DNA from: Candidatus Nanohalobium sp. | GTDB lineage: Archaea > Nanohalarchaeota > Nanosalinia > Nanosalinales > Nanosalinaceae | Length of the DNA: 64,000 bases | Direction of reading: 5' to 3' | Assembly (NCBI GenBank): GCA_042217555.1 | Contig: JBDGSL010000002.1 | Span: 79,343-143,342, forward strand | In this document: positions 10,071 through 31,892 of the stretch, piece by piece | Numbering within the stretch: position 1 is the stretch's first letter | Layout of the letters: every line of letters begins with the position of its first letter | Notes under the pieces: generated by a model | What the model saw: the letters and a program-made list of their open reading frames with translations, nothing else | Told to the model about the DNA's origin: nothing | The model's database searches: none | Program-made: the position numbers and the translations under genes

Positions 10071-10174
10071 GAACAAGTGAGATTCCTGAATTGTTTTATC
10101 AGTTATGGTTGTTGGAAGGGTGTTAGTTCGAAGTCTCTGTATGAGAGGATTCTCCTGAAGACTATTTCAACCCA

Positions 10175-11336: not shown

Positions 11337-11347
11337 GGTGAATTAAA

Positions 11348-12103
11348 ATGGAGCTACCAAACCAGTTCGACGAGAGGATAAGGCCAGACATCATCAAGAG
11401 AGCCAACCTTTCAATCAAGAGCAAGAAAAGACAGGACTACGGGTCAGACCCGGAAGCAGGACTGCGACACGTAGTATACTGGAAAAAACAGCAAAACGCA
11501 TACAGAGGGCAGAAAGGAAAGGGAATGTCTCGTACTCCTCGAAAGATCCGTGTCAGAAGAGGAAGTCAGATCTATGGAGACGGAGCAGAAGCACCGAACA
11601 CGATCGGTGGCAGAACCGCCCATCCTCCAAAAGCAGAGAAAAACTTTGAAGAAGAGATCAACGACAAGGAAAGAAGAAAGGCAATCAGGTCAGCAATCGC
11701 AGCAACAGCAGACCGGGAACTTGTCTCAGAGAAACATGAGTATGAAGGAGAAGTCCCGATTATCGAGGAAGGAATCTCAGGGATTGAAAAGACACAGGAA
11801 CTCAAGGAGAAGCTCGAAGACCTTGGACTTGAAGACGAACTTGACAGAGTGTCCGAGAAGAAAGTTAGAGGAGGTAAAGGAGCCAATCGTGGAAGAAAGT
11901 ACGTTAGAAAGGTTGGCCCGCTTGTAGTAACAGCGGAAGACGAAGGAATCTCAGATGCGGCAAGCAACCTGGCAGGTGTAGACCACTCCCAGGTAGATCA
12001 GCTGAACGCCGAAAAACTTGCTCCAGGAGCAGAACCAGGAAGACTGGTTGTATGGAGCAAAAAAGCAGTAGAGAAACTTGAAGAAGACGGTATGTACCAA
12101 TGA
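11348..12103 (+). CDS. rpl4: 50S ribosomal protein L4
   Basis: IRPDII, LAPGAEPGRL; operon order. Confidence 0.97.
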   Translation: MELPNQFDERIRPDIIKRANLSIKSKKRQDYGSDPEAGLRHVVYWKKQQNAYRGQKGKGMSRTPRKIRVRRGSQIYGDGAEAPNTIGGRTAHPPKAEKNFEEEINDKERRKAIRSAIAATADRELVSEKHEYEGEVPIIEEGISGIEKTQELKEKLEDLGLEDELDRVSEKKVRGGKGANRGRKYVRKVGPLVVTAEDEGISDAASNLAGVDHSQVDQLNAEKLAPGAEPGRLVVWSKKAVEKLEEDGMYQ

Positions 12104-12159
12104 AAACGAAAACACAAGGTTTTCTAAGATTCAGCAACACGCGAGGTGTAACTGAATAA
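12100..12159 (+). CDS. Bridging mini-ORF (19 aa, MKTKTQGFLRFSNTRGVTE)
   Basis: ATGA overlap with rpl4 stop; TAATG overlap with rpl23 start. Confidence 0.6.
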   Translation: MKTKTQGFLRFSNTRGVTE

Positions 12160-12428
12160 TGGAAGTTGACAGAGCATGGGAAGTTATCGAAAATCCACAC
12201 ATGACAGAACAGGCGATGGACATGATCGACGAAGAAAACAAACTCGTCCTCATGGTGGATCTGGAAGCAGACAAAGGCCAGGTAGAGGACGCAGTAGAGA
12301 CTCTGTTCGATGTGGATGTTGAGAAGGTCAATACTAACATCACGTCTTCCGCAAAGAAAAAAGCATACGTAAGACTAAGTCCAAGTGACAGCGCGATGGA
12401 CGTCGCGACTGAGCTTGGCATGATGTGA
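12159..12428 (+). CDS. rpl23: 50S ribosomal protein L23
   Basis: ENKLVLMV...KVNT...KKAYVRL. Confidence 0.97.
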   Translation: MEVDRAWEVIENPHMTEQAMDMIDEENKLVLMVDLEADKGQVEDAVETLFDVDVEKVNTNITSSAKKKAYVRLSPSDSAMDVATELGMM

Positions 12429-12438
12429 GGTAGGTAAT

Positions 12439-12492
12439 ATGACTAAAATCGAAGATTTTATGGGTTACCAGAAACTCGGTGAGTTTCGATAA
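12439..12492 (+). CDS. Bridging mini-ORF (17 aa, MTKIEDFMGYQKLGEFR)
   Basis: Own SD (GAGGT); TAATG overlap with rpl2 start. Confidence 0.6.
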   Translation: MTKIEDFMGYQKLGEFR

Positions 12493-13193
12493 TGGGATCG
12501 CCACTAAAACAGCAGAGAAGAGGAAAGGGAAGTCCAAACTTCCAGGCCAATAAGAAAGGCAAGGGAGTAACGGATCACAAAAACGCAGAAGTAACGGGAA
12601 CAGTAGTAGACCTGGTCCACGACCCGGCCAGGACAGCACCGGTAGCAAAAGTAGAGTTCGAAGACGGAGAAGTCAGAAACATTCTTGCACCGGAAGGCCT
12701 ACAGACAGGAGACGAAATTCAGGTCGGAGTATCAGCACCTGTAGAACCCGGAAACGTACTTCCACTAGGAGAAATCCCGGAAGGAGTACCAATCAACAAC
12801 ATCGAACTACAGCCAAACGACGGAGGAAAAATGGTTAAGGCATCAGGAACATACGCATTCGTCGTAACACAGGAGCAGGACGGAGTAAGAATCAAGCTTC
12901 CAAGCGGTGACTTCAAGAAACTCGATACTGAATGCAGAGCAACAGTTGGAAAGGTTGCAGCCGGCGGAAGAAAAGACAAGCCGCTTGTCAAGGCCGGAAA
13001 CGCATCCAAGGCTGCAAAGGCTCGTGGAAAACAGTACCCAACTGTCTCCGCAGTAGCCATGAACGCAGTCGACCACCCATTCGGTGGATCAGCAAAACCA
13101 GGACAGCCAAAGACAGTTTCCAAGCACGCTTCACCAGGAAGCAAGGTTGGAAACATCGGAGCCAAACGCTCCGGAAAGAAGAACAACGACTAG
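12492..13193 (+). CDS. rpl2: 50S ribosomal protein L2
   Basis: HDPARTAP, AMNAVDHPFGG. Confidence 0.98.
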   Translation: MGSPLKQQRRGKGSPNFQANKKGKGVTDHKNAEVTGTVVDLVHDPARTAPVAKVEFEDGEVRNILAPEGLQTGDEIQVGVSAPVEPGNVLPLGEIPEGVPINNIELQPNDGGKMVKASGTYAFVVTQEQDGVRIKLPSGDFKKLDTECRATVGKVAAGGRKDKPLVKAGNASKAAKARGKQYPTVSAVAMNAVDHPFGGSAKPGQPKTVSKHASPGSKVGNIGAKRSGKKNND

Positions 13194-13203
13194 GTGAACC
13201 CGC

Positions 13204-13263
13204 ATGACTAAAATCAAAGATTTTATGGCATTGCAGAAAACCACTGAGGTGGTTTTCGAATGA
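13204..13263 (+). CDS. Bridging mini-ORF (19 aa, MTKIKDFMALQKTTEVVFE)
   Basis: SD AGGTGA; ATGA overlap with rps19 start. Confidence 0.6.
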   Translation: MTKIKDFMALQKTTEVVFE

Positions 13264-13637
13264 CAGAAGAATTCACTTACAGAGGAAAAACACTCGAAGA
13301 ACTCCAGGACATGAGCCACGACGAACTAGCACCGCTTATGGATGCCCGGGCTCGCAGAAAACTGGAGAGAGGTCTTCGAGAAAACGAGGAAAAACTACTG
13401 GAAAAACTGGAGGACAAGGACCGTGTCCAGACACATCTCAGAGGAATGATCGTCCTTCCAGAAATGGTAGGAAAGACTATCGAGATCTACAACGGGCAAG
13501 GATTCGAAGAGGTTGATATTGAAGAAGAGATGATTGGCCACTACCTAGGAGAGTTCGCAAAAACCAGGAAAGAAGTATCACACAGCGCACCAGGACTCGG
13601 TGCTACAAGATCTTCAAAGCACGTACCGCTTAAGTGA
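13260..13637 (+). CDS. rps19: 30S ribosomal protein S19
   Basis: FTYRGK, MIGHYLGEFA. Confidence 0.98.
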   Translation: MTEEFTYRGKTLEELQDMSHDELAPLMDARARRKLERGLRENEEKLLEKLEDKDRVQTHLRGMIVLPEMVGKTIEIYNGQGFEEVDIEEEMIGHYLGEFAKTRKEVSHSAPGLGATRSSKHVPLK

Positions 13638-13642
13638 TTCAA

Positions 13643-13750
13643 ATGCGAAAATCAGAGATTCGAAAATTCGGAGAATTTTCTCCAAGAAATTCCTCACGGA
13701 ATTTCGTTTTCAGCCTTCCCAGAAACTCACAAGGTGAGTTTCGGCAATGA
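13643..13750 (+). CDS. Bridging mini-ORF (35 aa)
   Basis: Stop-free frame across the spacer; ATGA overlap with rpl22 start. Confidence 0.55.
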   Translation: MRKSEIRKFGEFSPRNSSRNFVFSLPRNSQGEFRQ

Positions 13751-14169
13751 ACAAGATCGAAACAGAACCACATCAGGCAAGAGCACTCGGCAAGAACATG
13801 CCGATCTCCTGGAAAGACGCAACAGAAATCGGCCGCTTCATCAAGGGAGACACGGTCGAAAAAGCAGAGAGAAAACTGGAAAAGGTAACGGAAGAAGAAC
13901 TCGCCGTACCGTACACAAAGTTCGACAGCGACGCAGGCCACCGAAGCGGAGACGGAGACTCAGGAAAATATCCTGTCAAAGCAGCAGAACACATGCTTGA
14001 AGTCGTACAGGAAGCAGCAAGCAACGCAGAACACCAGGGACTTAACCCGGGATCACTGCATGTAGAAAACGTCATCACAAACAAAGGAAACGAGTACGCA
14101 ACCCCTGGACGGTTTAGGGGAGAGAAAACCAAGGCAGCACATGTCAACGTAATCGTAGGTGAAAAGTAA
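13747..14169 (+). CDS. rpl22: 50S ribosomal protein L22
   Basis: ISWKDATEI, GKYPVKAA, NAEHQGL. Confidence 0.96.
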   Translation: MNKIETEPHQARALGKNMPISWKDATEIGRFIKGDTVEKAERKLEKVTEEELAVPYTKFDSDAGHRSGDGDSGKYPVKAAEHMLEVVQEAASNAEHQGLNPGSLHVENVITNKGNEYATPGRFRGEKTKAAHVNVIVGEK

Positions 14170-14273
14170 TGAATCGAAAACGAAAATTCAGTGAATTTTC
14201 TCAGAGAAAATCCTCAGGGATTTTCGGATCAGAGATTTTCTCAGTGATTTACACGCAAGGTGAAAATCAATAA
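14169..14273 (+). CDS. Bridging mini-ORF (34 aa)
   Basis: TAATG overlaps at both ends. Confidence 0.6.
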   Translation: MNRKRKFSEFSQRKSSGIFGSEIFSVIYTQGENQ

Positions 14274-15427
14274 TGCAAGAGAAACAGTTTATTGAGAAGG
14301 GAGCAAGGAAGGTAAGGCTTGATGAGTTCTTCTCGGATGAGCTTGCAGGAGCAGGTTATTCCAACTGTGAAATTGAGAGGACTCCTACAAGTACCAAAAT
14401 CGTAGTACATGCACAGAAACCAGGACTGGTTATAGGACGTGGTGGAAGCAGGATTCAGGAACTGACTGAAGATCTTGAAAGCGAGTTCGATTTCGAGAAC
14501 CCGCAGATCGAGGTCAGCGAGATCGATGAACCGGATGCAGACGCAAAGGTCGTGGCGAAGAGTATTGCAGACTGGCTTGAGAAAGGAGGCCACGCCAAAC
14601 GTGTAGGATACACATACGTCCGCAGGATGAAAGAAGCAGGTGTTATCGGAGCAGAGATAGAGATTACAGGAAAACTCTCCGGTAACAGAGGAAGAACAGA
14701 GAAGTTCTCCTTCGGATACGTCAAGAGATGTGGAGACACCTCAAAGAAAAACGTTCAGAAAGGATACGAGCTAGCCCGTACCAAACCAGGTGCTATCGGT
14801 GTCAAAGTAAGGATCATGAAGGACATGCCAGGTTTCCTTCACAGAGACGTCGATGTAAGCGGTGAAGTCCTCCATGAAGTCCAGGAAACTGAGGAAGCAA
14901 GAGATAAATCCACGAGGATTGAGGAAGTCGTCAGAGAAGCAGAGAATATGACTTCGGCAGAGCTTGAAAGAGCTATCGAGGAGAAGACAGAGGAAGTCAA
15001 GACAGACGACATCTCCAAGGAGGAAATCAGGGAAGCCTTCGACTCCGCTGACGCAGTAGAGAAACTGGAGGAAGAAGCTGAAGAAGTCGAAGAAGAAGCA
15101 GAGGAAATCATCGAGGAAGAAACAGGTGAAGAACAGGAAGAAGACGTTGAAGCAACTGAAAAGGAAGCTGAAGAAGTCAAAGAAGAGGCAGAGAAAGTTG
15201 CTGAAGAGACAGAGGATGAAGACGTAGAAGAAAAGGCTGAAGAAGTTGAGGAGGAAATGGAAGAAGTAGAAAAAGACCTTGAGGAAATCGTCTCAGGTAC
15301 GATAAGCGATGCCAAAGAGATGATCAACGAACTGGAGAATCCTGACTTCACAGCCCTGCTCGAGGCAGAGAAAGAGAACAAGGACCGTAAAACCTTCAAG
15401 GACTGGCTTGAAACCCGGAAGGATTAA
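14273..15427 (+). CDS. rps3: 30S ribosomal protein S3 with long acidic C-terminal extension
   Basis: KH motif PGLVIGRGG, GAIGVKVRI. Confidence 0.97.
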   Translation: MQEKQFIEKGARKVRLDEFFSDELAGAGYSNCEIERTPTSTKIVVHAQKPGLVIGRGGSRIQELTEDLESEFDFENPQIEVSEIDEPDADAKVVAKSIADWLEKGGHAKRVGYTYVRRMKEAGVIGAEIEITGKLSGNRGRTEKFSFGYVKRCGDTSKKNVQKGYELARTKPGAIGVKVRIMKDMPGFLHRDVDVSGEVLHEVQETEEARDKSTRIEEVVREAENMTSAELERAIEEKTEEVKTDDISKEEIREAFDSADAVEKLEEEAEEVEEEAEEIIEEETGEEQEEDVEATEKEAEEVKEEAEKVAEETEDEDVEEKAEEVEEEMEEVEKDLEEIVSGTISDAKEMINELENPDFTALLEAEKENKDRKTFKDWLETRKD

Positions 15428-15452
15428 AAGAGCTGAGAGGTGAAACCAAACC

Positions 15453-15641
15453 GTGAAAGCAGAAGAACTAAGAGAGAAGAGCGTATCCGAACTGAAGGAA
15501 GAACTTGGAAACCTTCAGAAAGAACTCGTACAGCAGAGAGGACAGATCGAGGCCGGAGGATTCGCTGACAGCCCGGGAGAGATCAAAGAGATGAAGAAAA
15601 CCATTGCAAGAATCAAAACAGTTCTCAACGAACGCAACTAG
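15453..15641 (+). CDS. rpl29: 50S ribosomal protein L29
   Basis: KAEELRE...KKTIARIKT; GTG start. Confidence 0.95.
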   Translation: MKAEELREKSVSELKEELGNLQKELVQQRGQIEAGGFADSPGEIKEMKKTIARIKTVLNERN

Positions 15642-15647
15642 ATACTA

Positions 15648-15755
15648 ATGAACGAAATTCACAGAATTTCTGGAATCAAAGGCCTTTCAGGCCTTCTGCA
15701 ACCTAGAAACCTGAAAGGTTTCGGAACTGCAGAAAATCGGGAGGCCGATTTTTGA
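15648..15755 (+). CDS. Bridging mini-ORF (35 aa)
   Basis: Stop TGA directly abuts the sui1 ATG. Confidence 0.5.
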   Translation: MNEIHRISGIKGLSGLLQPRNLKGFGTAENREADF

Positions 15756-16061
15756 ATGTCAGAGACCTGTCCAAAGTGCGGAATGCCTGAAGATCTTTGC
15801 GTCTGCGACAGCATCGCACGTGAAGATCAACAGATTACAGTAAAACTCGACTCAAGAAGCTACAATAAAGAGATGACAGTAGTTGAAGGCCTTGAAGAAG
15901 GATCAGAAATAGACGAACTGGCCTCGACACTGAAATCCCAACTTGCCTGCGGAGGAACAGCCAAGGAAGGCCACATAGAACTTCAGGGCGACCACAGAAG
16001 AAGAATCGTCGACATACTGGAAGACGAAGGCTTCTCACGAGAAAACATCGAAGTCAAATAA
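15756..16061 (+). CDS. sui1: Translation initiation factor SUI1 (aIF1)
   Basis: CPKCG..DLCVC, LACGGT, IELQGDH. Confidence 0.97.
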   Translation: MSETCPKCGMPEDLCVCDSIAREDQQITVKLDSRSYNKEMTVVEGLEEGSEIDELASTLKSQLACGGTAKEGHIELQGDHRRRIVDILEDEGFSRENIEVK

Positions 16062-16254
16062 ATCTTCGACACATTTTTACTTCTCCATTTTCTCCGTATT
16101 GAGTCTCAGTAGCATGACTTACTGATTGGGGGCAGCGATTTTTAGCTTTTCTAAAATTGGAATATAAGGTTTGAGGACAGGCTTGAGGGAATATTTGATT
16201 ATGTTGAGGTAGTAGATGAAGATAACTTCCTTGTTGTCAGGGCTGTGAAGTAGT

Positions 16255-16578
16255 TTACCTGTTTCTCTCGTGTTTTCTGGCAAACTCTTGCCAGTTGTCT
16301 ACAATTTTCTGGTATGCCGACCAGTAGTCCAGATGCTCTAGAGGAACTTTGTCGTCCTTGAAGGGGTGATCCTGGAACTTTAGGTCGATGTGTACAAATC
16401 CGTGTGCTGTGTCTAAAGTCACTACTTCCTCGTTTTCCTCTGTCTCAGGATTCCTGCAGACAAGAGTTATGCAGAAGTCTTCTTTTTCTTCAACGTCTTC
16501 TAGTTTATAGTCTGGCCTGTAGACGACCTCATATGCTTTGCCTTTAAACTGTCCCAGAGATAAGGAGTCGCTGGTCAT
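16255..16578 (-). CDS. Putative TumE/DUF7718-like toxin (start uncertain)
   Basis: DTAHGFVHID motif; divergent from an HVO_A0114-type HTH gene. Confidence 0.55.
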   Translation of the reverse strand: MTSDSLSLGQFKGKAYEVVYRPDYKLEDVEEKEDFCITLVCRNPETEENEEVVTLDTAHGFVHIDLKFQDHPFKDDKVPLEHLDYWSAYQKIVDNWQEFARKHERNR

Positions 16579-16689
16579 TGCCGATTTTCCCTCTAAATGT
16601 TGTTTGTAATACATCATTGATAAAGTGTTGAGGTCAGACATCATCACTTATTTAAGCTTTCAGCAACCACATTCCATATAGTGGCGGAA

Positions 16690-17061
16690 ATGGAGACTAC
16701 TACTGCAGAATCTGAAATAGATGTGGAAAAAGAGGGGTCGAAATCCTATGTTGGTGAGGACACGCTCGAATTTGTCAAAGAAGTTATTGAGAACAACAAA
16801 GACGTAAGTACTCACGTCATACCTGCTGAACTTGCCAGGAAGATAATGACGGAGAAAAGAATAGAGATTATAGAAACTATCAGAGAAGAGGAAATAGAAT
16901 CCAAAAGAGATCTGGCCAGAAAAGTAGACAGAGACATCAGTGTAGTCTCTAAAGACCTCAAAGTACTCTGGAAATACGGCATCGTCGAGTACAGGGAAGA
17001 AGACAATAACCGGAAGATACCGGAGATCACAGCCGAAAAAATAATAATAGAGCCTCTGTAA
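16690..17061 (+). CDS. HVO_A0114-like HTH DNA-binding protein
   Basis: TEKRIEII...SKRDLARKVDRDISVVSKDLKVL. Confidence 0.75.
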   Translation: METTTAESEIDVEKEGSKSYVGEDTLEFVKEVIENNKDVSTHVIPAELARKIMTEKRIEIIETIREEEIESKRDLARKVDRDISVVSKDLKVLWKYGIVEYREEDNNRKIPEITAEKIIIEPL

Positions 17062-17070
17062 AAACAATGT

Positions 17071-17593
17071 ATGCCGGGCGCAGTATTTCTAGAAGGCGAC
17101 AAAGTCAACCTCAGAACAGTTGAGGAAGAGGATCTGGAATTTATCAGAGATGCCTATAACCATCCTGAGGTTTGGCCTTGGCTAACTCATCAAGGTCCTC
17201 AAAACTTGGAGCAGGAGCGAGAATTCTTCGAAAACGTTATCTGCAGTGATGATCAGATCAACCTGGCGATTTCCGACGAAGAGACTATAACGGGTTTGAT
17301 ATCTCTCGTTCCGAAAGATGAGGACTGTAGCAGAGATAGGTATCTGGATTCATCCTGACTACCACGGAAACGGGTTTGGCACAGAAGCATCTGAACTCTT
17401 GGTAAAGTACGCCTTTGACCACAGGAACTACCACAAAATCGTGGCCCGTGCAATTGAGTCAAACACAGGATCTCAGAAAATCTGGGAGAAACTGGGGTTC
17501 CAGAAAGAAGGAGAACAAAGAGAGGAAATGTACAGAGACGGCAAACACAGAGACGTCTACTACTACGGCCTCATAGAACACGAGAGAAATTAA
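17071..17593 (+). CDS. RimJ/RimL GNAT acetyltransferase, frameshifted near 17320
   Basis: Two ORFs form one protein: VNLRTVEEEDL / EIGIWIHPDYHGNGFGTE...N..SQKIWEKLGF. Confidence 0.85.
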
Positions 17594-18193
17594 ATGAGAA
17601 ACAAAGTGAAGAAAGGCTATGAAGAAGGAGATTATGAATCTGATTACAGGGAAGGCAGGGACGTAAGGCCTGAAGAAAAAGATTTTTTCGACTCCCTTTC
17701 AGACCTGACAGGAGGAGATAAACTACTGGATTTAGGCTGTGGGACTGGAGTTCCTTTCGACAGGTATCTCTCAGAAAAGGGTTGGAAAGTTACAGGCTTT
17801 GATATCGCTGAAACTCACGTGGAAAAAGCCAGGGAAAACGTACCTTCTGGAGAGTTTAGACAGGGAGACTTCTTTCAACTGGACTTTGAAGAAGGCAGCT
17901 TTGACGCTGTAGTCAGCTTCTACGCTATATTCCACATTCCCAGGAAACAGCATTCTAAACTGCTTGATAAGATAAGCAGATGGGTGAAACAAGACGGTGC
18001 TATTTTGATTACCATGGGAGCAGAAAAAATGGATATGATGGAAGGAGACATAGGAGGAGAGAAAATGCTGTGGAGCTCATACTCAGCAGAAAAGAACAAA
18101 GAAATAGTCAAAGAAGCAGGCTTCAACATAGTTAGCTCATATGAGGAAGACTGGAGAGAAGAAACACACCTTTGGATCCTAGCAAAACCATGA
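17594..18193 (+). CDS. Class I SAM-dependent methyltransferase
   Basis: LLDLGCGTG, FDAVVSFYAIFH. Confidence 0.92.
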   Translation: MRNKVKKGYEEGDYESDYREGRDVRPEEKDFFDSLSDLTGGDKLLDLGCGTGVPFDRYLSEKGWKVTGFDIAETHVEKARENVPSGEFRQGDFFQLDFEEGSFDAVVSFYAIFHIPRKQHSKLLDKISRWVKQDGAILITMGAEKMDMMEGDIGGEKMLWSSYSAEKNKEIVKEAGFNIVSSYEEDWREETHLWILAKP

Positions 18194-18227
18194 TAAAAAC
18201 AAAATAATTCTCACATCATTATACTAC

Positions 18228-18506
18228 ATGCCACGAACACCTGAAAACCTGCCAAGACACGAACTGATCGGATTGGAAGCAGAAGTAGAGAAGCATCCTG
18301 ATTCCAACAAAGAAGGTATCTCGGGAGAAGTACTGGATGAAACCCGTGACATGCTGAGGATAGGCGATAAATGGGTGGAGAAAAAAGGCACTACTTTCCT
18401 GTTTGAACTGGGTGAGAAGAAGGTTCGTATCGAAGGCGATATCATCGATAAAAGGCCGGAGGACAGGTTGAAAATGAAGATGCCTGGTAAATGGGAAAGT
18501 GTCTAG
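18228..18506 (+). CDS. rnp1: Ribonuclease P protein component 1 (Rpp29)
   Basis: HELIGL, GEVLDET, RPEDR; conserved position before rps17. Confidence 0.95.
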   Translation: MPRTPENLPRHELIGLEAEVEKHPDSNKEGISGEVLDETRDMLRIGDKWVEKKGTTFLFELGEKKVRIEGDIIDKRPEDRLKMKMPGKWESV

Positions 18507-18551
18507 TCCCTGTCATTACTGATTTAATATTCGGCGAACAAGATTTTTACC

Positions 18552-18827: not shown

Positions 18828-19220
18828 ATGAAGTGATGTTTAGGGAGAGGTTGTGTAACTTGATTTTTCTCTGCAGCTGCTGAAAGATTTATCAGCAGGG
18901 CCGAATTATATTTGTTCGTGGAATTGATTGTAACTCCGCATGGAGAGGAAGATTTAGATTCGCTGGAGAAGACAGGAAGCCTGGGTAGGATAGCGAAAAA
19001 GATTAATGAGATAGAGGGGAAGTTGAGCAAGGTTTCGATCCTGAAAAAGTAGTTGAAAAGCGGACAGGAGGTACGTGGCATCCTATTCTACAGCAAACAG
19101 TAGGAGACTATAGGATATGGTTTATCGAGGGTGGAAAAACCAAGAAAGGTGATGAAGACAAACTATATTTGATCAGGGTATTGACCAAGCCAGAAGCATT
19201 GAAACTACAAGGTGTAGAAG

Positions 19221-19349
19221 TTAATCCAGATATTTATCTTTAATATCGCTCCAGTTCTTACCTTCGCCGCTGCCGACCGACTTCAAGGCCTCGATAGTTT
19301 TCTCTGCCTCTCTTCTCACATCTTCCGCCACCTTCACAGTTTCAGGCAT
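19221..19349 (-). CDS. Small antitoxin-like ORF or remnant (42 aa)
   Basis: MPETVKVAEDV...; SD AGGTGG upstream. Confidence 0.35.
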   Translation of the reverse strand: MPETVKVAEDVRREAEKTIEALKSVGSGEGKNWSDIKDKYLD

Positions 19350-19383
19350 TTCAATCCACCTATGTCCTATTTTGGTATAAAGA

Positions 19384-19614
19384 CTTAAACTTCTTACTGT
19401 CTTCCACCATCAGGGCTTGCACCCTTTTTAAGAGTTGTCTTCTTTTTTGTGTTTACGGCCTTTGGGTCGTGGATTTGGGATTCCTGCTGAAAGTCGCTTT
19501 CGAGCGAAACTGCAGATAGGGGTCCGGCTGAAAGTGGAAAACCTAGTTTTTCCTTGATGGTCGGGTTTCTATGCTTTTTTTCAGCAGGAGTGTTCACGAG
19601 GTGAAAAACGAATA
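19384..19614 (+). promoter_or_regulatory. Promoter and structured leader upstream of rps17
   Basis: TTAAA box at ~19385; 11-bp stem 19482-19492/19579-19589; internal hairpins. Confidence 0.6.
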
Positions 19615-19887
19615 ATGAGCCAAGAATACGAAGTGCGAGGCGGAACTTTCACAGGGACGGTTGTATCTACGAAGATGCAGAAGTCCGCTACGGTGAGATG
19701 GGAGCACACACAGGAAATTCCAAAATACGAGAGAAAAGAAAGAAGAAACACCAAGGTCACGGTTCACGTACCGGAAGACATTGACATAGAGGAAGGTGAC
19801 AGAGTTGAGATAGGGGAGACACGGCCCATCTCAAAGACTAAAAGCCATGTAGTGATTGAAAAAATTGAAAACGGTGGCTCTGAATGA
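19615..19887 (+). CDS. rps17: 30S ribosomal protein S17
   Basis: GTVVSTKM, ETRPISKTK. Confidence 0.98.
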   Translation: MSQEYEVRGGTFTGTVVSTKMQKSATVRWEHTQEIPKYERKERRNTKVTVHVPEDIDIEEGDRVEIGETRPISKTKSHVVIEKIENGGSE

Positions 19888-19994
19888 AGATTTCCGCAGG
19901 AAATACTTCTGGCCACAGATTCGGAGAATCTGTTAATAGAAGTTCTGAGCAGAAGAACTTCGGCAGAAATCACCTCAGAGGTGGTTTCGAATGA
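19884..19994 (+). CDS. Bridging mini-ORF (36 aa)
   Basis: ATGA overlaps at both ends. Confidence 0.6.
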   Translation: MKISAGNTSGHRFGESVNRSSEQKNFGRNHLRGGFE

Positions 19995-20392
19995 AACCTC
20001 TAGGATCGAACATAACACGCTCACTTGACCTGGGAGCAGAACTGACATGTGCAGATAACTCCGGAGCCAAAGAACTAAAGATAATAGGCGTTAAGTCCAG
20101 AAAGGGCAGAAGAAGCAGAAGAGAAAGCGCAGGAGTCGGAGATGTCGTAAAGGTAAAGATACTTAGAGGAGACGAAGAAGTAAGACACCAGGTATTCGAC
20201 GCAGTTATAGTGCGTCAGGCAAAGGAGTTCGAAAGACCTCAGGGCCTCAGCGTAAAGTTCGAAGATAACGCAGCAGTCCTGATCGAGGAAGAGACCGGAA
20301 TGCCGAAAGGAAACGTGACAAAAGGCCCGATCGCAAAGGAAGTAGTACAGAGATTCTCAGCGATCGGAAAAATCGCGTCAAAGGTGGTTTAA
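19991..20392 (+). CDS. rpl14: 50S ribosomal protein L14
   Basis: CADNSGAK, FEDNAAV. Confidence 0.98.
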   Translation: MKPLGSNITRSLDLGAELTCADNSGAKELKIIGVKSRKGRRSRRESAGVGDVVKVKILRGDEEVRHQVFDAVIVRQAKEFERPQGLSVKFEDNAAVLIEEETGMPKGNVTKGPIAKEVVQRFSAIGKIASKVV

Positions 20393-20445
20393 TGAATAAA
20401 ATCGCAGATGTTAAGACTAGCCGGAAACCGGAGGTTTTCAACTAA
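20392..20445 (+). CDS. Bridging mini-ORF (17 aa, MNKIADVKTSRKPEVFN)
   Basis: TAATG overlaps at both ends. Confidence 0.6.
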   Translation: MNKIADVKTSRKPEVFN

Positions 20446-21107
20446 TGGCAGATAAGACACAGAACTGGAGCAAGGAATGGAAGAAAAGCGAGAACCCTCA
20501 GAAACAGAGAAAATACAGGAAAAACGCTCCACAGCACGTAAAGGACAAAATGATATCAGCAAACCTCTCACACGGACTTAGAGACCAACTGGATACAAGA
20601 AACCTTCAGGTTAACCTTGGTGACAGGGTTGAAGTCATGAGAGGAGATTTCAAGGGAAGCAGCGGAATAGTAAGTGCCATAGACAGAAACAGACAGAAGA
20701 TATACATCGACGGCCTTGAAGTAGAGAGACAGGACGGGACGACAAGAGAAAGACCGTTCCAGCCTTCAAACCTTCAGATACAGGCACTTAACCTTGAGGA
20801 CATGGAAAGAATCGAGAAATACGAAGTAGAAGACGCAGAAGAGATCCAGATCGACGAGGAAGAAGTTGAAGAAGTGCTTGAAGAAGACGATGAGAACGAG
20901 ATGATGCAGCAGATGCAGGGAGGCGGCGCACAGCCAGACATGGATATAGATGAGGAAGACATGGAAGAAATCAAGGAGGCCGCAGAAGAAGCAAGCGAAG
21001 ATGAAGGTTCCGAAGACGAATCAGAGGAACCCTCAGAAGATGAAGAAGTTGAGGAACAGGACGAGACAGAAACCTCTGAAGAAGACCAAGAAGGTGAAAA
21101 AGAATGA
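20445..21107 (+). CDS. rpl24: 50S ribosomal protein L24 with acidic tail
   Basis: PQKQRKY, GDRVEVMRGDFKG, PSNL. Confidence 0.96.
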   Translation: MADKTQNWSKEWKKSENPQKQRKYRKNAPQHVKDKMISANLSHGLRDQLDTRNLQVNLGDRVEVMRGDFKGSSGIVSAIDRNRQKIYIDGLEVERQDGTTRERPFQPSNLQIQALNLEDMERIEKYEVEDAEEIQIDEEEVEEVLEEDDENEMMQQMQGGGAQPDMDIDEEDMEEIKEAAEEASEDEGSEDESEEPSEDEEVEEQDETETSEEDQEGEKE

Positions 21108-21763
21108 CACATCAGAAAAGACTTTCAGCACCCAAGCATTATCCCATCTCCAGGAAAGAGAACACTTACATCTCGACGGTTAAGGGAAGCAGAAGTATCG
21201 AAGACGCTATCCCGGCCAATGTTTTCCTGAGAGATGTAACAGGTTACGCAGAGACGGACAAAGAAGCCAAAAAAATAGTGAGAAACGGAGACCTCCTCAG
21301 GAACGGTGAAAGGATCAGGGATGTCAAGCAGGGAATTGGAGTCCTGGACGTAGTAGAGCTTCCAAAGGCAGAAGAAACTTTCAGGGCAATAAGAGATGGA
21401 AAAAACCTTAAATTCATCCCAACAGAGGATAAAAGAACGGCTGCCAAGATCACAGATAAAACTGTTGAAGACGATGAATTTATCTACCATCTTCACAACG
21501 GAGAGAACTTCAGGAGCACTACGGAATATGAAACAGGAAGCACCTTGCTTCTCAAGGAGGGAGAAGAGGAAGTCAAGCTTGAAGACGGAGCAGATGTTCT
21601 TGTTATCTCCGGTCAGCACGCAGGGGAGAAAGCAGAACTTGAAGAGATAAACAGGAGAGGGATGAATCCCGATACCGGAACGGTTTCGGAAGAAGGCACT
21701 GAGTTCGAGACAAAACTTGAAAACCTTGTAGCTCTTGGAGACCTCGAGGTGGTTTTTGAATGA
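21104..21763 (+). CDS. rps4e: 30S ribosomal protein S4e
   Basis: HQKRLSAP, LHNGEN, GQHAG. Confidence 0.96.
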   Translation: MTHQKRLSAPKHYPISRKENTYISTVKGSRSIEDAIPANVFLRDVTGYAETDKEAKKIVRNGDLLRNGERIRDVKQGIGVLDVVELPKAEETFRAIRDGKNLKFIPTEDKRTAAKITDKTVEDDEFIYHLHNGENFRSTTEYETGSTLLLKEGEEEVKLEDGADVLVISGQHAGEKAELEEINRRGMNPDTGTVSEEGTEFETKLENLVALGDLEVVFE

Positions 21764-22272
21764 CAGAGAACCCTATGAAGGAGATCAAGGTGGCAAAGGT
21801 AACAGTGAATATCAGTGAGGAAAACGTAGGAGATCAGGTTGAGGCAGCTTACGATCTGATTGAAAAAATTACAGGTAAAGAGCCTGTCTGGGTAGAGTCA
21901 AAGGAAGGAGCGAAGACTTTTGGAAACCGACAGGGCTTGAACATCGGTGCAATGGTAACACTTAGAGGAGAGGACGCAGTAGATTTCCTCGAAAAAGTTC
22001 GACCAGCTATCGAAGAACTTAACGCTTCAGCTTTCAGCGACGGAAACTTTGCCTTCGGAATCAGTGAATACATCGATGTTCCAGGAGTGGACTACGATGC
22101 AGACATCGGTATGAAAGGTTTCGAGGTGAACGTCGTACTGGAAAGACCTGGATACAGGGTGAAGAAACGGGATCATAAACCCTCCGAGATCGGAGGCAGT
22201 CATAAGGTCTCTAACGATGAAGCAATCGAGTTCGCGGAAAGCAAGCTTGGATTCGAGGTGAATAATCAATGA
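21760..22272 (+). CDS. rpl5: 50S ribosomal protein L5
   Basis: [27 protein letters not shown]. Confidence 0.97.
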
Positions 22273-22493
22273 GTTATGAGAAGGTTTTAGACCAGATCAA
22301 GCACAAGGAGGGTAAGAGAAAGAAGTTTGAGAAGAATAACTCTCCTAAGGAAAGAGACTACGGAAAATCCAAGAAAGAATGCAGAAGATGCGGTAGAACA
22401 GGTAGAGGAGTTATCAGCAAGTACGGACTTAACTACTGCCGTCAATGCTTCAGAGAAGTGGCCGAGGAGATCGGCTTCAAACAGCTTAAATAG
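22269..22493 (+). CDS. rps14: 30S ribosomal protein S14
   Basis: CRRCG...YCRQCFRE. Confidence 0.96.
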
Positions 22494-22505
22494 GTGAGCC
22501 GAAAG

Positions 22506-22568
22506 ATGACAAGAGAATACGGAAACAAGTTTTCTAATCTAGAAAACGCCGGAGGCGATTCCCAGTGA
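22506..22568 (+). CDS. Bridging mini-ORF (20 aa)
   Basis: SD AGGTGA; GTGA overlap with rps8 start. Confidence 0.6.
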   Translation: MTREYGNKFSNLENAGGDSQ

Positions 22569-22954
22569 AACATGATACACTTAGCGATGCACTGAGCGCG
22601 ATTAACAACGCGGCCAGGAACAACAAGGATTACGCAGTGGTCTCTCCAACCAGCAGCCTGCTGAAGAACGTACTGATCGAACTGCAGCAGAACGGTTACA
22701 TAGGAGTATTTGAACTCGTAGAGGACGGAAAGGGAGGTAAGTTCAAGATAGAGGTAACGGACGACATCAATGAATGCAGGCCTGTCAAACCTAACTTTTC
22801 AGTGCAGAACGACGAGTTCGACAAGTGGGCCAAGAGATACCTGCCTGCACAGGGATTCGGCGATCTATTGGTCACGACCTCACACGGAGTAATGACGCAT
22901 GAAGAAGCCCGTGAGGAAAACCTGGGAGGAAAACTGCTTGGATACGTCTACTAA
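22565..22954 (+). CDS. rps8: 30S ribosomal protein S8
   Basis: DTLSDALS, TTSHGVMTH, GGKLLGYVY. Confidence 0.97.
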   Translation: MKHDTLSDALSAINNAARNNKDYAVVSPTSSLLKNVLIELQQNGYIGVFELVEDGKGGKFKIEVTDDINECRPVKPNFSVQNDEFDKWAKRYLPAQGFGDLLVTTSHGVMTHEEAREENLGGKLLGYVY

Positions 22955-22966
22955 GAGGTAGAAAAA

Positions 22967-23497
22967 ATGTCAGAAGAAACAACAATCGAGATTCCGGAGG
23001 ACTTCGACGCAGAATACGAAGAAGGAGTCTTCACTCTTTCAAACGGCGAAGAAGTCAGTAAGAAGATGGAACACGCACTGGTAGACGTAGAGATCAACGG
23101 TCAGGAAGTAACTTTCAGCACTTCCAGCAGTAAGAAAGATGTTCAGAGCATCGTCCATACTTTCAAGAGCCATGTAGAAAACATGATTGAAGGACTGGAA
23201 GACGAGCATGTCTACCGGATGAAGGGTGTTTACGCACACTTCCCTATGACTATCAAACAGCAAGGTGGCCAGGTAGTGATCGAGAACTTCATGGGTGAAA
23301 GAAACCCTAGGAAGGTAGACATTATGGACGGAGTAACTGTAGAGGTAGATGGCGAGGACCTGACACTGAAGGGAGCGGACAAGGACGCCGTAAGCCAGAC
23401 AGCAGCAAGGATCGAACAGGAATGCAAGAAAGGAAACCGTGATCCAAGAACCTTCCAGGACGGAGTATACATCACACAGAAAGGTGATAGTCAATGA
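22967..23497 (+). CDS. rpl6: 50S ribosomal protein L6
   Basis: YAHFPM, NFMGE, DPRTFQDGVY. Confidence 0.97.
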   Translation: MSEETTIEIPEDFDAEYEEGVFTLSNGEEVSKKMEHALVDVEINGQEVTFSTSSSKKDVQSIVHTFKSHVENMIEGLEDEHVYRMKGVYAHFPMTIKQQGGQVVIENFMGERNPRKVDIMDGVTVEVDGEDLTLKGADKDAVSQTAARIEQECKKGNRDPRTFQDGVYITQKGDSQ

Positions 23498-23595
23498 GGC
23501 AGACCAAAGGTTTGCTTGATACAGAAAACAAAGACTCAACCGGTTTTTCCGGGAGAAGATTCAGAGAAGCTTCGAATCAGGTGATTTTCAAATGA
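23494..23595 (+). CDS. Bridging mini-ORF (33 aa)
   Basis: ATGA overlaps at both ends. Confidence 0.6.
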   Translation: MRQTKGLLDTENKDSTGFSGRRFREASNQVIFK

Positions 23596-23927
23596 GTTTT
23601 GAGAGACAGGACAAGCACAAGAACAACAAACTGAAAGATAAATCCTGGAGAAGCCCCGACGGAGGGCATTCCAAGGTAAGACTTGAGAAAAACGGAGCTG
23701 CACCCAAACCCAAGATAGGTTACAGGGCTCCCAGCGAGATAAGAGGAAGACATCCCTCAGGATACGAAGAAGTACTGGTACACAACACCGGCGACCTGGA
23801 AGAGATAGAGGAAGGAGAAGCAGCAAGAATAGCGTCCAAGGTCGGTGGAAGAAAAAGAGAACAGATAATAGAAAAAGCAGACGAAGAAGACATCAAAGTC
23901 CTCAACAGAGGTGAACAGTCAGAATGA
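23592..23927 (+). CDS. rpl32e: 50S ribosomal protein L32e
   Basis: FERQ..WRSP.G.HSK, HPSGY, VLN. Confidence 0.95.
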   Translation: MSFERQDKHKNNKLKDKSWRSPDGGHSKVRLEKNGAAPKPKIGYRAPSEIRGRHPSGYEEVLVHNTGDLEEIEEGEAARIASKVGGRKREQIIEKADEEDIKVLNRGEQSE

Positions 23928-23992
23928 TTGATTCTGACTTTGCAGAAGATTCTCTAAAGAATCTTCGAACCGAGGTGTTTTCGAATGACTGA
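23924..23992 (+). CDS. Bridging mini-ORF (22 aa)
   Basis: ATGA overlap upstream; 8-nt ATGACTGA overlap with rpl19e. Confidence 0.55.
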   Translation: MIDSDFAEDSLKNLRTEVFSND

Positions 23993-24428
23993 TCTAAAGT
24001 CACAGAAGAGAATGGCCGCAGAAGTAATGGACGTAGGAAAGGATCGTGTCTGGATCAACCCTGATGAACAGGAAAAAGTAGAAGAAGCAATCACCAGGAA
24101 AGATATCAGGAACCTTGTAGAAGGAGGTACCATCCAGAAAAAAGACGAGGAAGGAAACAGCAAAGGTAGAAGCAGAGAGAAAAAGAAACAGAAAAAGAAA
24201 GGACGGAGAAAAGGACAGGGAAGCCGGAAAGGAAAGAAATCGGCCAGAAAAGACGATAAACAGAAGTGGATGGAAAAAATCAGATCCATCAGGGAAAGAC
24301 TGAAAGAAATGAAGGAAAACGAGGAAATCACCTCTGAACAGTACAGAGAACTCTACGACATGAGCAAGGGAGGATTCTTCAGAGACACAAAACACCTAGA
24401 AAACCATGTAGAGAACAAACTGGAGTGA
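23985..24428 (+). CDS. rpl19e: 50S ribosomal protein L19e
   Basis: LKSQKRMAA, RVWINP, GSRKG. Confidence 0.97.
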   Translation: MTDLKSQKRMAAEVMDVGKDRVWINPDEQEKVEEAITRKDIRNLVEGGTIQKKDEEGNSKGRSREKKKQKKKGRRKGQGSRKGKKSARKDDKQKWMEKIRSIRERLKEMKENEEITSEQYRELYDMSKGGFFRDTKHLENHVENKLE

Positions 24429-24434
24429 ACAGAC

Positions 24435-24476
24435 ATGAAAATCAGAGACCTACAGAACACAGAAGGTGAACTTTGA
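24435..24476 (+). CDS. Bridging mini-ORF (13 aa, MKIRDLQNTEGEL)
   Basis: SD GGAGTGA; stop 1 nt before rpl18 ATG. Confidence 0.5.
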   Translation: MKIRDLQNTEGEL

Positions 24477-24477
24477 T

Positions 24478-24987
24478 ATGGCAGAAGACTCAAACACTAA
24501 AGTCCCGCACAGAAGACGAAGAGAACAGAAAACAGACTACCAGCAGAGAAGAAAACTGGTGAAGTCAGGAAAACCAAGAGCAGTAGTAAGACTGAGCAAC
24601 AAACACACGAGAACACACCTGGCACACTTCAACAGGGAAGGCGATGAGAACACAGCACAGACACTCAGCAAAGAACTGGAAAACTACGGCTGGGAACACA
24701 ACACAGGTAATCTTCCAGCAGCATACCTGACAGGTTTCCTGACCGGTATGAAAGCTGAAGAAGACGAAGCAGTACTTGATATAGGCCTTAGAGAAAAAAA
24801 GAATGGAGGAAGAGTATTTGCAGCAGTTAAAGGCATGAACGACGCAGGACTCAACGTTCCTGTAGGCGAAGAAGTAATCCCTGAAGAATCAAGGATCAAA
24901 GGAGAACACATTAAAGAAATGATCGACGAAGAAGTCCCGAAAAGCTTTGAAGAAGTCAAAGAAAACATTAAAGGTGATTTCGAATGA
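24478..24987 (+). CDS. rpl18: 50S ribosomal protein L18
   Basis: RRRREQKTDY, NLPAAYLTG; start at ATG 24478. Confidence 0.96.
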   Translation: MAEDSNTKVPHRRRREQKTDYQQRRKLVKSGKPRAVVRLSNKHTRTHLAHFNREGDENTAQTLSKELENYGWEHNTGNLPAAYLTGFLTGMKAEEDEAVLDIGLREKKNGGRVFAAVKGMNDAGLNVPVGEEVIPEESRIKGEHIKEMIDEEVPKSFEEVKENIKGDFE

Positions 24988-25088
24988 TCGAAAATCAGAG
25001 ATTTTCTGGACTCGAAACCGGAACGGTTTCTATGAGTACAGAATCCGTTGGATTCGAACATGCAGAAATTCTAGGTGATTTCGAATGA
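24984..25088 (+). CDS. Bridging mini-ORF (34 aa) flanked by a 16-bp direct repeat
   Basis: ATGA overlaps at both ends; AGGTGATTTCGAATGA at 24972-24987 and 25073-25088. Confidence 0.65.
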   Translation: MIENQRFSGLETGTVSMSTESVGFEHAEILGDFE

Positions 25089-25750
25089 GCGAACAGGAAA
25101 CAGAGGAGATTTGGAAGCCGAAGACAGAACTCGGTGAGATGGTAGCTAACGGACAGATAACAGGAATCCGTGAAGCACTGAACTCCGACAAGAGGATAAT
25201 GGAGCCGGAGATAGTTGATCAACTGGCAGATCTTCAGGAAGAAGTAGTACTGATCGGAGGAACACCTGGAAAGGGAGGGGGCAAGAGAAGAACAGTCTCC
25301 AAACGTACGGCTAGGATGCACAAGTCCGGAGCAAGATACAACAGTAAAGCGATGACAATACTGGGTAACAAGAACGGTATCGTCGGGATCGGCATGGGAG
25401 AATCAGATGACACCCGTGCAGCGATCGACGACGCCAACAGGAGAGCAAAACTCAACCTGATAGAAGTGCCGCTTGGAAACGGAAGCTGGGAGGACCAGGG
25501 AGAAAACAACACTTCCATCCCTCTCGCAGTAGAAGGAAAGTCCGGAAGCGTAACCGTAGAAGTCAAGCCAGCGCCGAGAGGAACAGGTTTAGCTGCCAGT
25601 GACGAGGTAAAGAAGATACTTGAACTGGCTGGCATCCGGAACGCCTGGGTGCAGGCACGTGGAACAACACGAACACGTGAAAACCTGATAAAGGCAACAT
25701 TCAACGCACTGAAAAAAATCAAACAGTACCAGAGAAGTGATGACAGATGA
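25085..25750 (+). CDS. rps5: 30S ribosomal protein S5
   Basis: WKPKTELG, PAPRGTGL. Confidence 0.97.
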   Translation: MSEQETEEIWKPKTELGEMVANGQITGIREALNSDKRIMEPEIVDQLADLQEEVVLIGGTPGKGGGKRRTVSKRTARMHKSGARYNSKAMTILGNKNGIVGIGMGESDDTRAAIDDANRRAKLNLIEVPLGNGSWEDQGENNTSIPLAVEGKSGSVTVEVKPAPRGTGLAASDEVKKILELAGIRNAWVQARGTTRTRENLIKATFNALKKIKQYQRSDDR

Positions 25751-26082
25751 CACTACTAGTAGCAGTCAAGGTCAGGGGCAGCATCGACGCCTCCGAATCA
25801 ATCAGCAGGACACTGCAGACACTGGGCCTGGAGAAGAAAAACCAGGCAAGAATCATGGAAGACAATGAGTCCAACAGAGGGATGCTGAGAAAGGCCAAGG
25901 ACTACATCGCCTACGGAGAAGTAGACCAGGAAACCGTAGAGCAGCTTGAAGCAGAGACAGGAGAAACAGTCACTCTATCACCTCCAAGTGGAGGATTCAA
26001 AAGCACGAAAAAACAGCGTCACCAGGGAGGAAGTCTCGGAAAAAGGGACGACATGGAAGAACTCCTTGGAAAGATGCTGTAA
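25747..26082 (+). CDS. rpl30: 50S ribosomal protein L30 (short form)
   Basis: VKVRG, YIAYGE, LSPPSGG. Confidence 0.94.
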   Translation: MTLLVAVKVRGSIDASESISRTLQTLGLEKKNQARIMEDNESNRGMLRKAKDYIAYGEVDQETVEQLEAETGETVTLSPPSGGFKSTKKQRHQGGSLGKRDDMEELLGKML

Positions 26083-26130
26083 CCGAAAATCGAGAGATTT
26101 TCTAAAAAATTCAACACACAGTGTTCAACA

Positions 26131-26184
26131 ATGCGAAATTCAAAGAATTTCTGTATTACCAGAAGCACAGAGGTGCTTCGATAA
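26131..26184 (+). CDS. Bridging mini-ORF (17 aa, MRNSKNFCITRSTEVLR)
   Basis: TAATG overlap with rpl15 start; starts 48 nt after the rpl30 stop. Confidence 0.45.
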   Translation: MRNSKNFCITRSTEVLR

Positions 26185-26609: not shown

Positions 26610-26661
26610 ATAAACAGTCTTTCCCAAAATATTTTTTACCAGCACAGAGGTAATCAACCAG

Positions 26662-31845: not shown

Positions 31846-31892
31846 AAGTCTTTTCCCTAAACTATTTTAACCAGCTTCTGTCTTTAATTGGT

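Follow-up and report, generated by a model that had tools for sequence, protein, structure and literature searches.

Mycobacterial interspersed repetitive units (MIRUs) are mobile repeats of 40-100 bp that insert at start codons and carry an internal open reading frame (ORF) coupled at -4, an arrangement thought to lessen the harm done to the invaded gene (PMC12548453, PMC3184786). The present analysis concerns a comparable arrangement in an archaeon. The 64,000-nucleotide stretch examined, hereafter called the window, comes from Candidatus Nanohalobium sp. (assembly GCA_042217555.1, contig JBDGSL010000002.1, positions 79,343 to 143,342) and carries the archaeal S10/spc ribosomal protein cluster at window positions 10365-28050. 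Fourteen of the 22 gene junctions in this universal cluster are invaded by hairpin-rich cassettes, each of which holds a mini-ORF of 13-36 codons that leads to the next start codon. We consider it likely that the cassettes are mobile elements that settle on start codons, and that the mini-ORF hands ribosomes across each insert so that coupling along the operon is kept. An earlier sequence-only reading of the window knew of no description of this arrangement, a claim that does not survive comparison with MIRUs, which have already been described in such terms (PMC12548453, PMC3184786).

As MIRUs are portrayed in these sources, the cassettes resemble them in being short repeats present in tens of copies between operon genes and at start codons, in having both filled and empty sites, in bearing short direct repeats at their ends and inverted repeats inside, and in carrying an internal ORF that overlaps the flanking genes (here it ends on or within 1 nt of the next start in 13 of 14 cases and overlaps the upstream stop in 7 of 14). 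They differ in having a nanohaloarchaeal host rather than Mycobacterium, in their A/T-rich hairpins (GAAA..TTTC) where those of MIRUs are G+C-rich, in placing a new Shine-Dalgarno (SD) site in the last hairpin, in that no tandem arrays of the variable-number type were seen, and in their heavy invasion of the S10/spc cluster. The likeness is one of design, and a relation in sequence is not expected. We rate the cassettes as an archaeal, hairpin-based form of known operon-invading, coupling-preserving repeats that is unusually dense in a universal ribosomal operon. The principle is known from MIRUs; the gain lies in its extension to a new domain of life and in its much denser occurrence.

Synthetic bicistronic design provides a further parallel. 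In such constructs a short first cistron has its own SD and contains the second SD inside its coding sequence, and its stop codon overlaps the start of the real gene, where the translating ribosome unfolds any structure. The cassettes match this layout in their leader cistron, embedded second SD and stop/start overlap, and differ from it in being natural and mobile, in their wealth of hairpins and in following one another many times along a single operon. The leader cistron of a bicistronic design has been pictured as 'delivering' the ribosome, and models of coupling by RNA unfolding and by reinitiation both fit the relay proposed here (PMC12548453). Among gene pairs of Haloferax volcanii and E. 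coli, overlapping genes proved strictly coupled by termination-reinitiation in 13 of 14 tested cases (PMC6728339), and coupling was nearly lost at a distance of about 20 nucleotides (nt) (PMC10666635). Such pairs share the ATGA and TAATG overlaps seen at both ends of most mini-ORFs (PMC6728339, PMC10666635). Unlike them, a cassette interposes a non-coding-looking mini-cistron between two real genes, and coupling would therefore need two successive reinitiation events.

Another group of related elements consists of small palindromic repeats that spread in the DNA between genes. These include repetitive extragenic palindromic (REP) sequences and bacterial interspersed mosaic elements (BIMEs), miniature inverted-repeat transposable elements (MITEs), and the Neisseria REP2 and Borrelia IR repeats, the last two of which lie just upstream of genes and carry a ribosome-binding site, an ATG and two stem-loops (PMC3184786). 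In contrast to this group, no transposase-type terminal inverted repeats were recognised in the cassettes and no promoter is implied. What sets the cassettes apart from all of these repeats is that they are defined by a frame bridging two cistrons. Insertion in frame into genes is a property of Rickettsia palindromic elements. Our search of the literature on nanohaloarchaea and DPANN archaea found nothing on elements of this kind, and passages of one report on nanohaloarchaea mention just CRISPR, methylation motifs and noncoding RNAs (PMC10266531).

Cassettes at the junctions of the S10/spc cluster

Genes from L3 to SecY were identified with Pfam, and the starts of the ribosomal protein genes are backed both by alignment with relatives from residue 1 and by an independent gene caller. 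The cluster runs L3-L4-L23-L2-S19-L22-S3-L29-SUI1 and, after a gap, S17-L14-L24-S4e-L5-S14-S8-L6-L32e-L19e-L18-S5-L30-L15-SecY. Re-reading of all 14 intervals agrees with the sequence-only reading that each is a stop-free ATG ORF: every one begins with ATG, has a length divisible by three (42-111 nt), and contains a single stop codon, at its end. The described starts are likewise correct. Seven mini-ORFs overlap the upstream stop, either as ATGA (L4-L23, S17-L14, L6-L32e, L32e-L19e and L18-S5) or as TAATG (L22-S3 and L14-L24), six begin 5-12 nt past it, and L30-L15 alone begins 48 nt past it. The further claim that all 14 stop within 1 nt of the next start holds for 13. Their 3' ends are TAATG in five cases, ATGA or GTGA in six, TGA directly before ATG at L29-SUI1, and TGA, one base and ATG at L19e-L18; the mini-ORF at 23924-23992 is out of line, with a stop 8 nt into L19e (whose start is at 23985). 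Direct ATGA overlaps without a spacer are present at L24-S4e-L5-S14 and S5-L30, as had been noted. Other junctions that are not widened are L3-L4 (11 nt), S3-L29 (25 nt) and S8-L6 (12 nt), and the L15-SecY junction is 52 nt wide without a mini-ORF.

The basic unit spans about 53-59 nt and forms two hairpins. Beginning with the ATG and a further 0-6 nt, it consists of a first hairpin of the form (C)GAAAATC-NNN-GATTTTC, a linker, a second hairpin, the letters TTTCGA or CGATA, and then the downstream gene's start codon. The second hairpin carries the SD site GAGGTG in its loop and 3' arm, and its 5' arm often resembles an anti-SD sequence (..CAC/CACC). Longer units contain additional hairpins. 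When the folds of the 14 spacers are compared with those of shuffled sequences, z ranges from -0.6 to -5.1, and in 12 of the 14 at least half of the SD core is paired. Among 51 bridged junctions in this and other genomes (by the rule given below), 36 end in a hairpin whose stem has 5 bp or more, and an SD core lies inside it in 34. These terminal hairpins have 27 distinct 5' arms, each with a matching 3' arm, as tabulated by script. GAAA..TTTC hairpins whose stems reach 7 bp or more gave 190 strand-wise matches in the genome, compared with 8-80 for ten control arms.

Some cassettes are related to one another, and repeat families D2, D12 and D18 can be recognised among them. For example, an extra 48 nt in the L22-S3 cassette (14181-14226) reproduce the interior of the S19-L22 cassette (13661-13706; family D18) as an 85% copy. 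Tandem Repeats Finder (TRF) detected no tandem cassette arrays in 12000-26300. Against Rfam 15 nothing in the window reached gathering score, and a search of 10000-28000 returned only two matches, both at chance level (E 0.2-0.35). The native, tight S4e-L5 junction at 21738-21768 (GAGGTGGTTTTTGAATGA) nearly matches the 3' ends of the cassettes, which therefore look copied from the genome's usual ribosome-binding region.

Comparison with relatives indicates that the spacers are recent insertions. Three loci from the same genus (L001-L003), with L2 proteins 90-94% identical to that of the window, have junctions of 0-15 nt or ATGA/TAATG overlaps at 12 of the 14 mini-ORF places. The exceptions are L22-S3, which is widened in all three relatives (52-55 nt versions, all open), and L23-L2, L29-SUI1, S17-L14 and S14-S8, each of which is widened in one. 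At seven junctions (L23-L2, L2-S19, L29-SUI1, S14-S8, L6-L32e, L18-S5 and L30-L15) the mini-ORF ATG occupies the place where relatives start the downstream gene, with the same spacer letters. Letters duplicated at the two ends of the insert are centred on ATG and are mostly 3-6 nt long, reaching 16 nt at L18-S5. These flanking letters show that the mini-ORF ATG and the SD before it are usually the signals at which the downstream gene used to start. Units land on start codons, and the old SD and old ATG are thus kept at the 5' end of the insert, which closes with a new SD and start. At L4-L23 the old signals are lost; here the stop of L4, TAA or TAG in relatives, has become TGA, and the resulting ATGA is therefore new.

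The source assembly comprises 1.3 Mb in 88 contigs. A second sample (X2) has contigs (records 11-14) that show no differences over 14701-15635, 17467-18527, 19711-21511 and 22364-23919, and four mini-ORFs fall inside these identical stretches. The sequence is therefore real and no artefact of assembly. Joints in the X2 run that skip a cassette carry the junction letters of L002-type relatives, and we therefore take them to come from species that live alongside this one and not to reflect polymorphism within its population.

A repeat family and its distribution

An nhmmer search found 68 matches to the cassettes in this genome, 25 of which abut a called gene start. In 22 of these 25, an ATG mini-ORF ends between -4 and +7 of that start. 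Outside the cluster, the genes behind cassettes encode ribosomal proteins S24e, L21e, L1 and L39e, aEF-2, PheRS beta, RpoA', an RpoP-like zinc ribbon, Spt4, Rrp41, proteasome alpha, ATP synthase A, B and D, topoisomerase VI A, an amino-acid kinase and a phosphoadenosine phosphosulfate (PAPS)-reductase-like protein. Cassettes thus reside mainly in core operons, which are presumably highly expressed.

Because the alignment left the second hairpin out of register, the family model (R1) uses sequence only. Model R1 matches 50 of 70 genomes of the nanohaloarchaeal order. This genome (G000) has 24 matches, two genomes of another genus have 28 and 22, one congener has only 2, and the complete genome titled Candidatus Nanosalina sp. 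VS9-1 (G004) has 6. Extending the search from order to phylum brought in no further genomes. It has no match in 67 ribosomal protein loci of other lineages.

Evidence of exchange comes from the S19-L22 junction, where the cassette differs from its counterpart in a locus of another genus (L009) by one substitution and one 3-nt indel. The coding DNA on either side is mostly 70-85% identical between the two, and three genomes of the window's own genus do not have this cassette. Kindred cassettes also occur at different junctions, as with the L23-L2 cassette of the window, which resembles that at L4-L23 in L009. The remaining junctions that are filled in both loci carry unrelated cassettes, and the same sites therefore appear to have been invaded repeatedly. 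The widened junctions are best explained as copies of a nanohaloarchaeal repeat family that is mobile, or that at least spreads by copy-and-paste.

Spacers of the same design occur in loci labelled Woesearchaeota or Nanoarchaeota. A/T-rich spacers with two hairpins and bridging mini-ORFs are present at L22-S3 in L093 and L068 and at L5-S14 in L068 and L076, and have no match to the nanohaloarchaeal model.

Signs of a maintained reading frame and a possible ribosome relay

To count bridged junctions in a blind test, the first ATG outside the upstream frame was sought from -12 to +15 of the upstream gene's end, and its ORF had to stop between -6 and +10 of the next start. The null model combined a dinucleotide shuffle of the spacer interior with random deletion of 0-2 nt, and P values are Poisson-binomial. 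In the window, 13 of 15 widened junctions pass this rule compared with 2.8 expected (P = 3e-10), and in other nanohaloarchaeal loci 38 of 69 pass compared with 10.5 expected (P 9e-20). In the 67 loci from other DPANN and other lineages the figure is 24 of 233 (10%). Bridged junctions cover at least 16 distinct ribosomal protein junctions across the genomes, each of which needs its own insertion despite the kinship of cassettes and of genomes. A stricter rule, with the start between -4 and +15, missed three cassettes of relatives in which the ATG lies 8 nt before the upstream stop. Applied to the whole genome, this stricter rule finds 30 of 363 co-directional gaps of 30-160 nt to be bridged, 12 of them in the S10/spc cluster; most of the other wide co-directional gaps look like promoter regions.

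Among the 51 bridged junctions, the distance from the mini-ORF ATG to the next start leaves a remainder of 2 on division by three in 39 cases, 1 in seven and 0 in five. Stops lie at offsets of -2 (19 junctions), +1 (18), -3 (5), +5 (4), -4 (3) and -5 (2). A first hairpin is recognisable in 17 of 30 cassettes examined, where it is read in frame 0, 1 and 2 in eight, five and four cases, respectively, and the resulting peptides are unrelated between frames (for example KIxDF, ENQRFS and KSEIF). With one hairpin read in three frames, the frame cannot merely have come along with the sequence, and the downstream distance must adjust. Indels between orthologous cassettes are 3 nt and 48 nt long, both of which preserve the frame. 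The L22-S3 junction is open in all ten genomes where it is widened, through lengths of 34-103 nt. Where the second codon of the next gene does not start with A, the cassette brings its own TAA or TGA on or beside the ATG.

The frame-preserving indels, the three-frame reading of the first hairpin and the fit of the stops to their individual targets speak for selection that upholds the frame. The shuffle test and the alignment of orthologous spacers that the sequence-only reading had proposed gave an excess of open frames beyond chance and indels that keep register. Its broader suggestion that the spacers were inserted and then selected for coupling is partly supported: the empty sites attest the insertions, and the comparative pattern fits selection for a frame running from the upstream stop to the next start. 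The hairpins, the repeat family with its spread through genome and clade, and the usual identity of the mini-ORF start with the ancestral start codon had escaped that reading.

Given that coupling is nearly lost at about 20 nt, an insert of 50-115 nt would be expected to uncouple the flanking genes. In the relay that we propose, a ribosome finishing the upstream gene would reinitiate at the old ATG, or a ribosome would bind at the old SD there. The old ATG lies over the stop in seven cases and 5-12 nt past it, preceded by the old SD, in six. The ribosome would then read the mini-cistron, opening the hairpins in which the new SD is hidden, before terminating on the new start and reinitiating, so that the operon might stay coupled over 50-115 nt. 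Inserts that break this frame-to-start rule would be removed by selection.

Several points weigh against this interpretation. Translation of the mini-ORFs, reinitiation, melting of the hairpins and persistence of the spacers in mature mRNA are all steps that we infer from sequence. Each cassette has its own SD, and the downstream gene might start independently, which would make the mini-ORF dispensable. The same hairpins also occur, without ORFs, after stop codons and inside tRNA-like genes, and at these sites they must have spread for reasons unrelated to coupling; moreover, 3 of the 25 copies that abut a gene start have no ATG mini-ORF. The inserts are poor in T before A or G, a bias that makes open frames fairly likely (null values per junction of 0.05-0.6), and the P values overstate independence because cassettes share descent and genomes are kin. 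Finally, L32e-L19e is out of register, and the L30-L15 mini-ORF begins 48 nt away with a hairpin and a TAA in between.

The hairpins might instead be selfish or neutral repeats, spreading for their own sake, in which the new SD allows an independent start and the mini-ORF is a tolerated by-product that is not used, its frame having come with the master copy. The kinship of the copies, the ORF-less hairpins in 3' regions and tRNA-like genes, and the start-abutting copies without a mini-ORF are consistent with this idea. So is the composition of the insert, which duplicates ATG, is poor in stop-forming dinucleotides (with a null of up to 0.6 per junction) and often leaves other frames nearly open as well. 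A frame inherited from a master copy is nonetheless hard to reconcile with a register that is held through length changes of 42-111 nt, with a first hairpin read in all three frames, or with indels that are multiples of three. It likewise leaves aside the stop-codon change in L4 that made an ATGA at L4-L23, the explicit TAA or TGA before starts whose second codon lacks A, and the 13 bridged junctions of 15 against 2.8 expected, when other DPANN loci reach 10%. We therefore judge this account unlikely. Less probable still is that the RNA structure acts in cis, for instance in processing or stability, in binding of ribosomal proteins or nucleases, or in pausing that sets subunit ratios, with the open frame simply avoiding harm. 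Folds more stable than shuffles, stems that covary across 27 distinct arm pairs, and the concentration of cassettes in genes for ribosomal proteins, RNA polymerase, ATP synthase, exosome, proteasome and EF-2 would suit such a function. However, no Rfam family matches at a useful score and hairpin sequences vary between junctions. Same-genus relatives do without inserts at most junctions, so no conserved regulatory need is visible, and a role of structure alone would give no reason for stops to fall exactly on the next start.

Two other explanations are much more remote. The spacers might be bulge-helix-bulge introns or other segments excised from the mRNA, whose removal restores tight ATGA junctions. 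Direct repeats centred on ATG(A) flank the inserts, so that the ancestral junction could be restored, and the same hairpins fill inserts in tRNA-like genes. This seems very improbable, since a segment that is cut out needs neither a kept frame nor a stop on the next start, and since a scan restricted to strict helix-bulge(3)-helix(4)-bulge(3)-helix motifs whose excision would remove about the ATG-to-ATG distance found none among the 14 spacers (shuffle mean 0.64). It is even harder to credit that the mini-ORFs encode small functional proteins. They do have ATG starts, with a good SD upstream in 10 of 14, but one and the same hairpin, read in three frames, gives unrelated peptides, same-genus relatives lack the mini-ORFs, and none of the eight peptides of at least 20 amino acids has a Pfam match at E up to 1.

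A ribosome relay across mobile cassettes thus remains our preferred interpretation. If it is correct, the cassettes amount to a natural repeated experiment on the reach and reliability of ribosome passage from cistron to cistron in archaea, in which 14 of the 22 junctions of life's most conserved operon cluster were opened and bridged within the lifetime of one genus. They would also supply ready natural parts for bicistronic designs in halophilic archaea, and would mark recent mobile-element activity and exchange between nanohaloarchaeal genera. A bolder version, which we regard as possible but rather doubtful, is that nanohaloarchaea, and perhaps DPANN archaea widely, harbour active, horizontally spreading 'translation-transparent' elements that home to operon start codons. 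The last hairpin would lock the new SD against an anti-SD mimic, invaded genes would be translated only by handed-on ribosomes in a strict relay chain, and the look-alikes in Woesearchaeota and Nanoarchaeota would belong with these elements to one ancient, undescribed class.

Individual cassettes and neighbouring sequences

All mini-ORFs are on the plus strand. At L4-L23 (12100-12159), 19 codons run from an ATGA on the L4 stop to a TAATG on the L23 start through two hairpins, the second containing GAGGTG (fold z -3.4), where relatives have 10-12 nt. The L23-L2 mini-ORF (12439-12492; 17 codons) opens 10 nt past the stop, at the relatives' L2 start place, and ends in TAATG. It belongs to repeat family D2 (nhmmer E 2.8e-6), together with two others of 17 codons. 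One of these lies at L14-L24 (20392-20445) and has TAATG at both ends. The other, at L30-L15 (26131-26184; nhmmer E 6e-5), starts from the old L15 ATG, 48 nt past the L30 stop, and ends in TAATG. Just past that L30 stop and outside the mini-ORFs is a lone GAAAATC..GATTTTC hairpin (26085-26102), which is followed by TAA.

The L2-S19 mini-ORF (13204-13263; 19 codons, ending in ATGA) is the top match of the family model. It retains the old SD and ATG (GTGAACC.GC-ATG, as in relatives), and its last hairpin pairs GAAAACCAC with GTGGTTTTC. In relative G002, the same junction holds a 356-nt insert (L002:3209-3564) that resembles an inserted small gene and not a hairpin cassette, compared with a 66-nt cassette in the window. 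At S14-S8 (22506-22568; 20 codons) the ATG is 12 nt past the stop, behind the old AGGTGA, and the 3' end forms GTGA on the GTG start of S8; this spacer has the weakest fold of the 14 (z -0.6). The shortest mini-ORF, at L19e-L18 (24435-24476; 13 codons), ends with TGA and one base before the ATG at 24478.

Six mini-ORFs are long. That at S19-L22 (13643-13750; 35 codons) contains at least three hairpins and ends in ATGA (fold z -3.2), and that at L22-S3 (14169-14273; 34 codons) has TAATG at both ends. At L29-SUI1 (15648-15755; 35 codons; fold z -4.5) the TGA abuts the SUI1 ATG, and the corresponding junction is 6 nt in L002 and a 72-nt cassette, open too, in L001. The S17-L14 mini-ORF (19884-19994; 36 codons) has ATGA at both ends and the lowest z of the set (-5.1), and in its last hairpin (GAAATCACCT/AGGTGGTTTC) the SD is paired with an anti-SD-like arm; L002 and L003 have junctions of 3 nt. 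ATGA also occurs at both ends of the L6-L32e mini-ORF (23494-23595; 33 codons), a junction at which a direct ATGA overlap joins the two genes in all three same-genus relatives. At L18-S5 (24984-25088; 34 codons) the 16-nt sequence AGGTGATTTCGAATGA is found at both ends, and relatives have an ATGA or TAATG overlap.

The out-of-register mini-ORF at L32e-L19e (23924-23992; 22 codons) stops 8 nt inside L19e (ATGACTGA). The version in L016 shares its 5' part, is 20 nt shorter and is in register. In three loci from other families (L017, L018 and L031) this junction is a gap of 170-178 nt with a small ORF encoding a CxxC...CxxC zinc ribbon, which is a real extra gene and not a cassette. Similar ORFs are present in the Aenigmatarchaeota-labelled loci L039 and L041.

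Hairpins of the cassette type also fill tRNA-like regions. At 31514-31670 (and 31690-31850), a tRNA-like gene (acceptor GCCGGGG...CCCCGGCG, T-arm GGTTCAAATCC) is split by about 70 nt containing a GAAAATC..GATTTTC hairpin, and a second copy of its 3' end (CCAGCCCCGGCG) lies about 170 nt further on, past more hairpins. Comparable hairpin-filled tRNA-like regions exist on other contigs. ARAGORN reports no tRNA in the window, and Rfam finds none there at gathering score. Caution is warranted in annotating nanohaloarchaeal genomes, where the hairpins disturb tRNA genes as well as gene starts and small ORFs.

The SUI1-S17 gap (16062-19614), which ranges from about 0.4 to 8.5 kb among relatives, contains accessory genes for a DUF7718 protein (minus strand), an HVO_A0114-like winged-helix protein, an S-adenosylmethionine (SAM)-dependent methyltransferase, the RNase P protein Rpp29 and a DUF433 protein. 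It also includes a GNAT acetyltransferase (17071-17593) in two overlapping frames (17071-17358 and 17318-17593), which correspond to the N- and C-terminal halves of Pfam Acetyltransf_3 and represent either a frameshifted gene or a sequencing error. Two of the ribosomal proteins are extended. In S3 (14273-15427; 384 amino acids) the Pfam domains stop near residue 181 and are followed by a long, acidic, Glu-rich tail, and L24 (20445-21107; 220 amino acids) has a long tail of the same kind. These tails are made of imperfect repeats of 9-21 nt and 90 nt (TRF 15071-15276).

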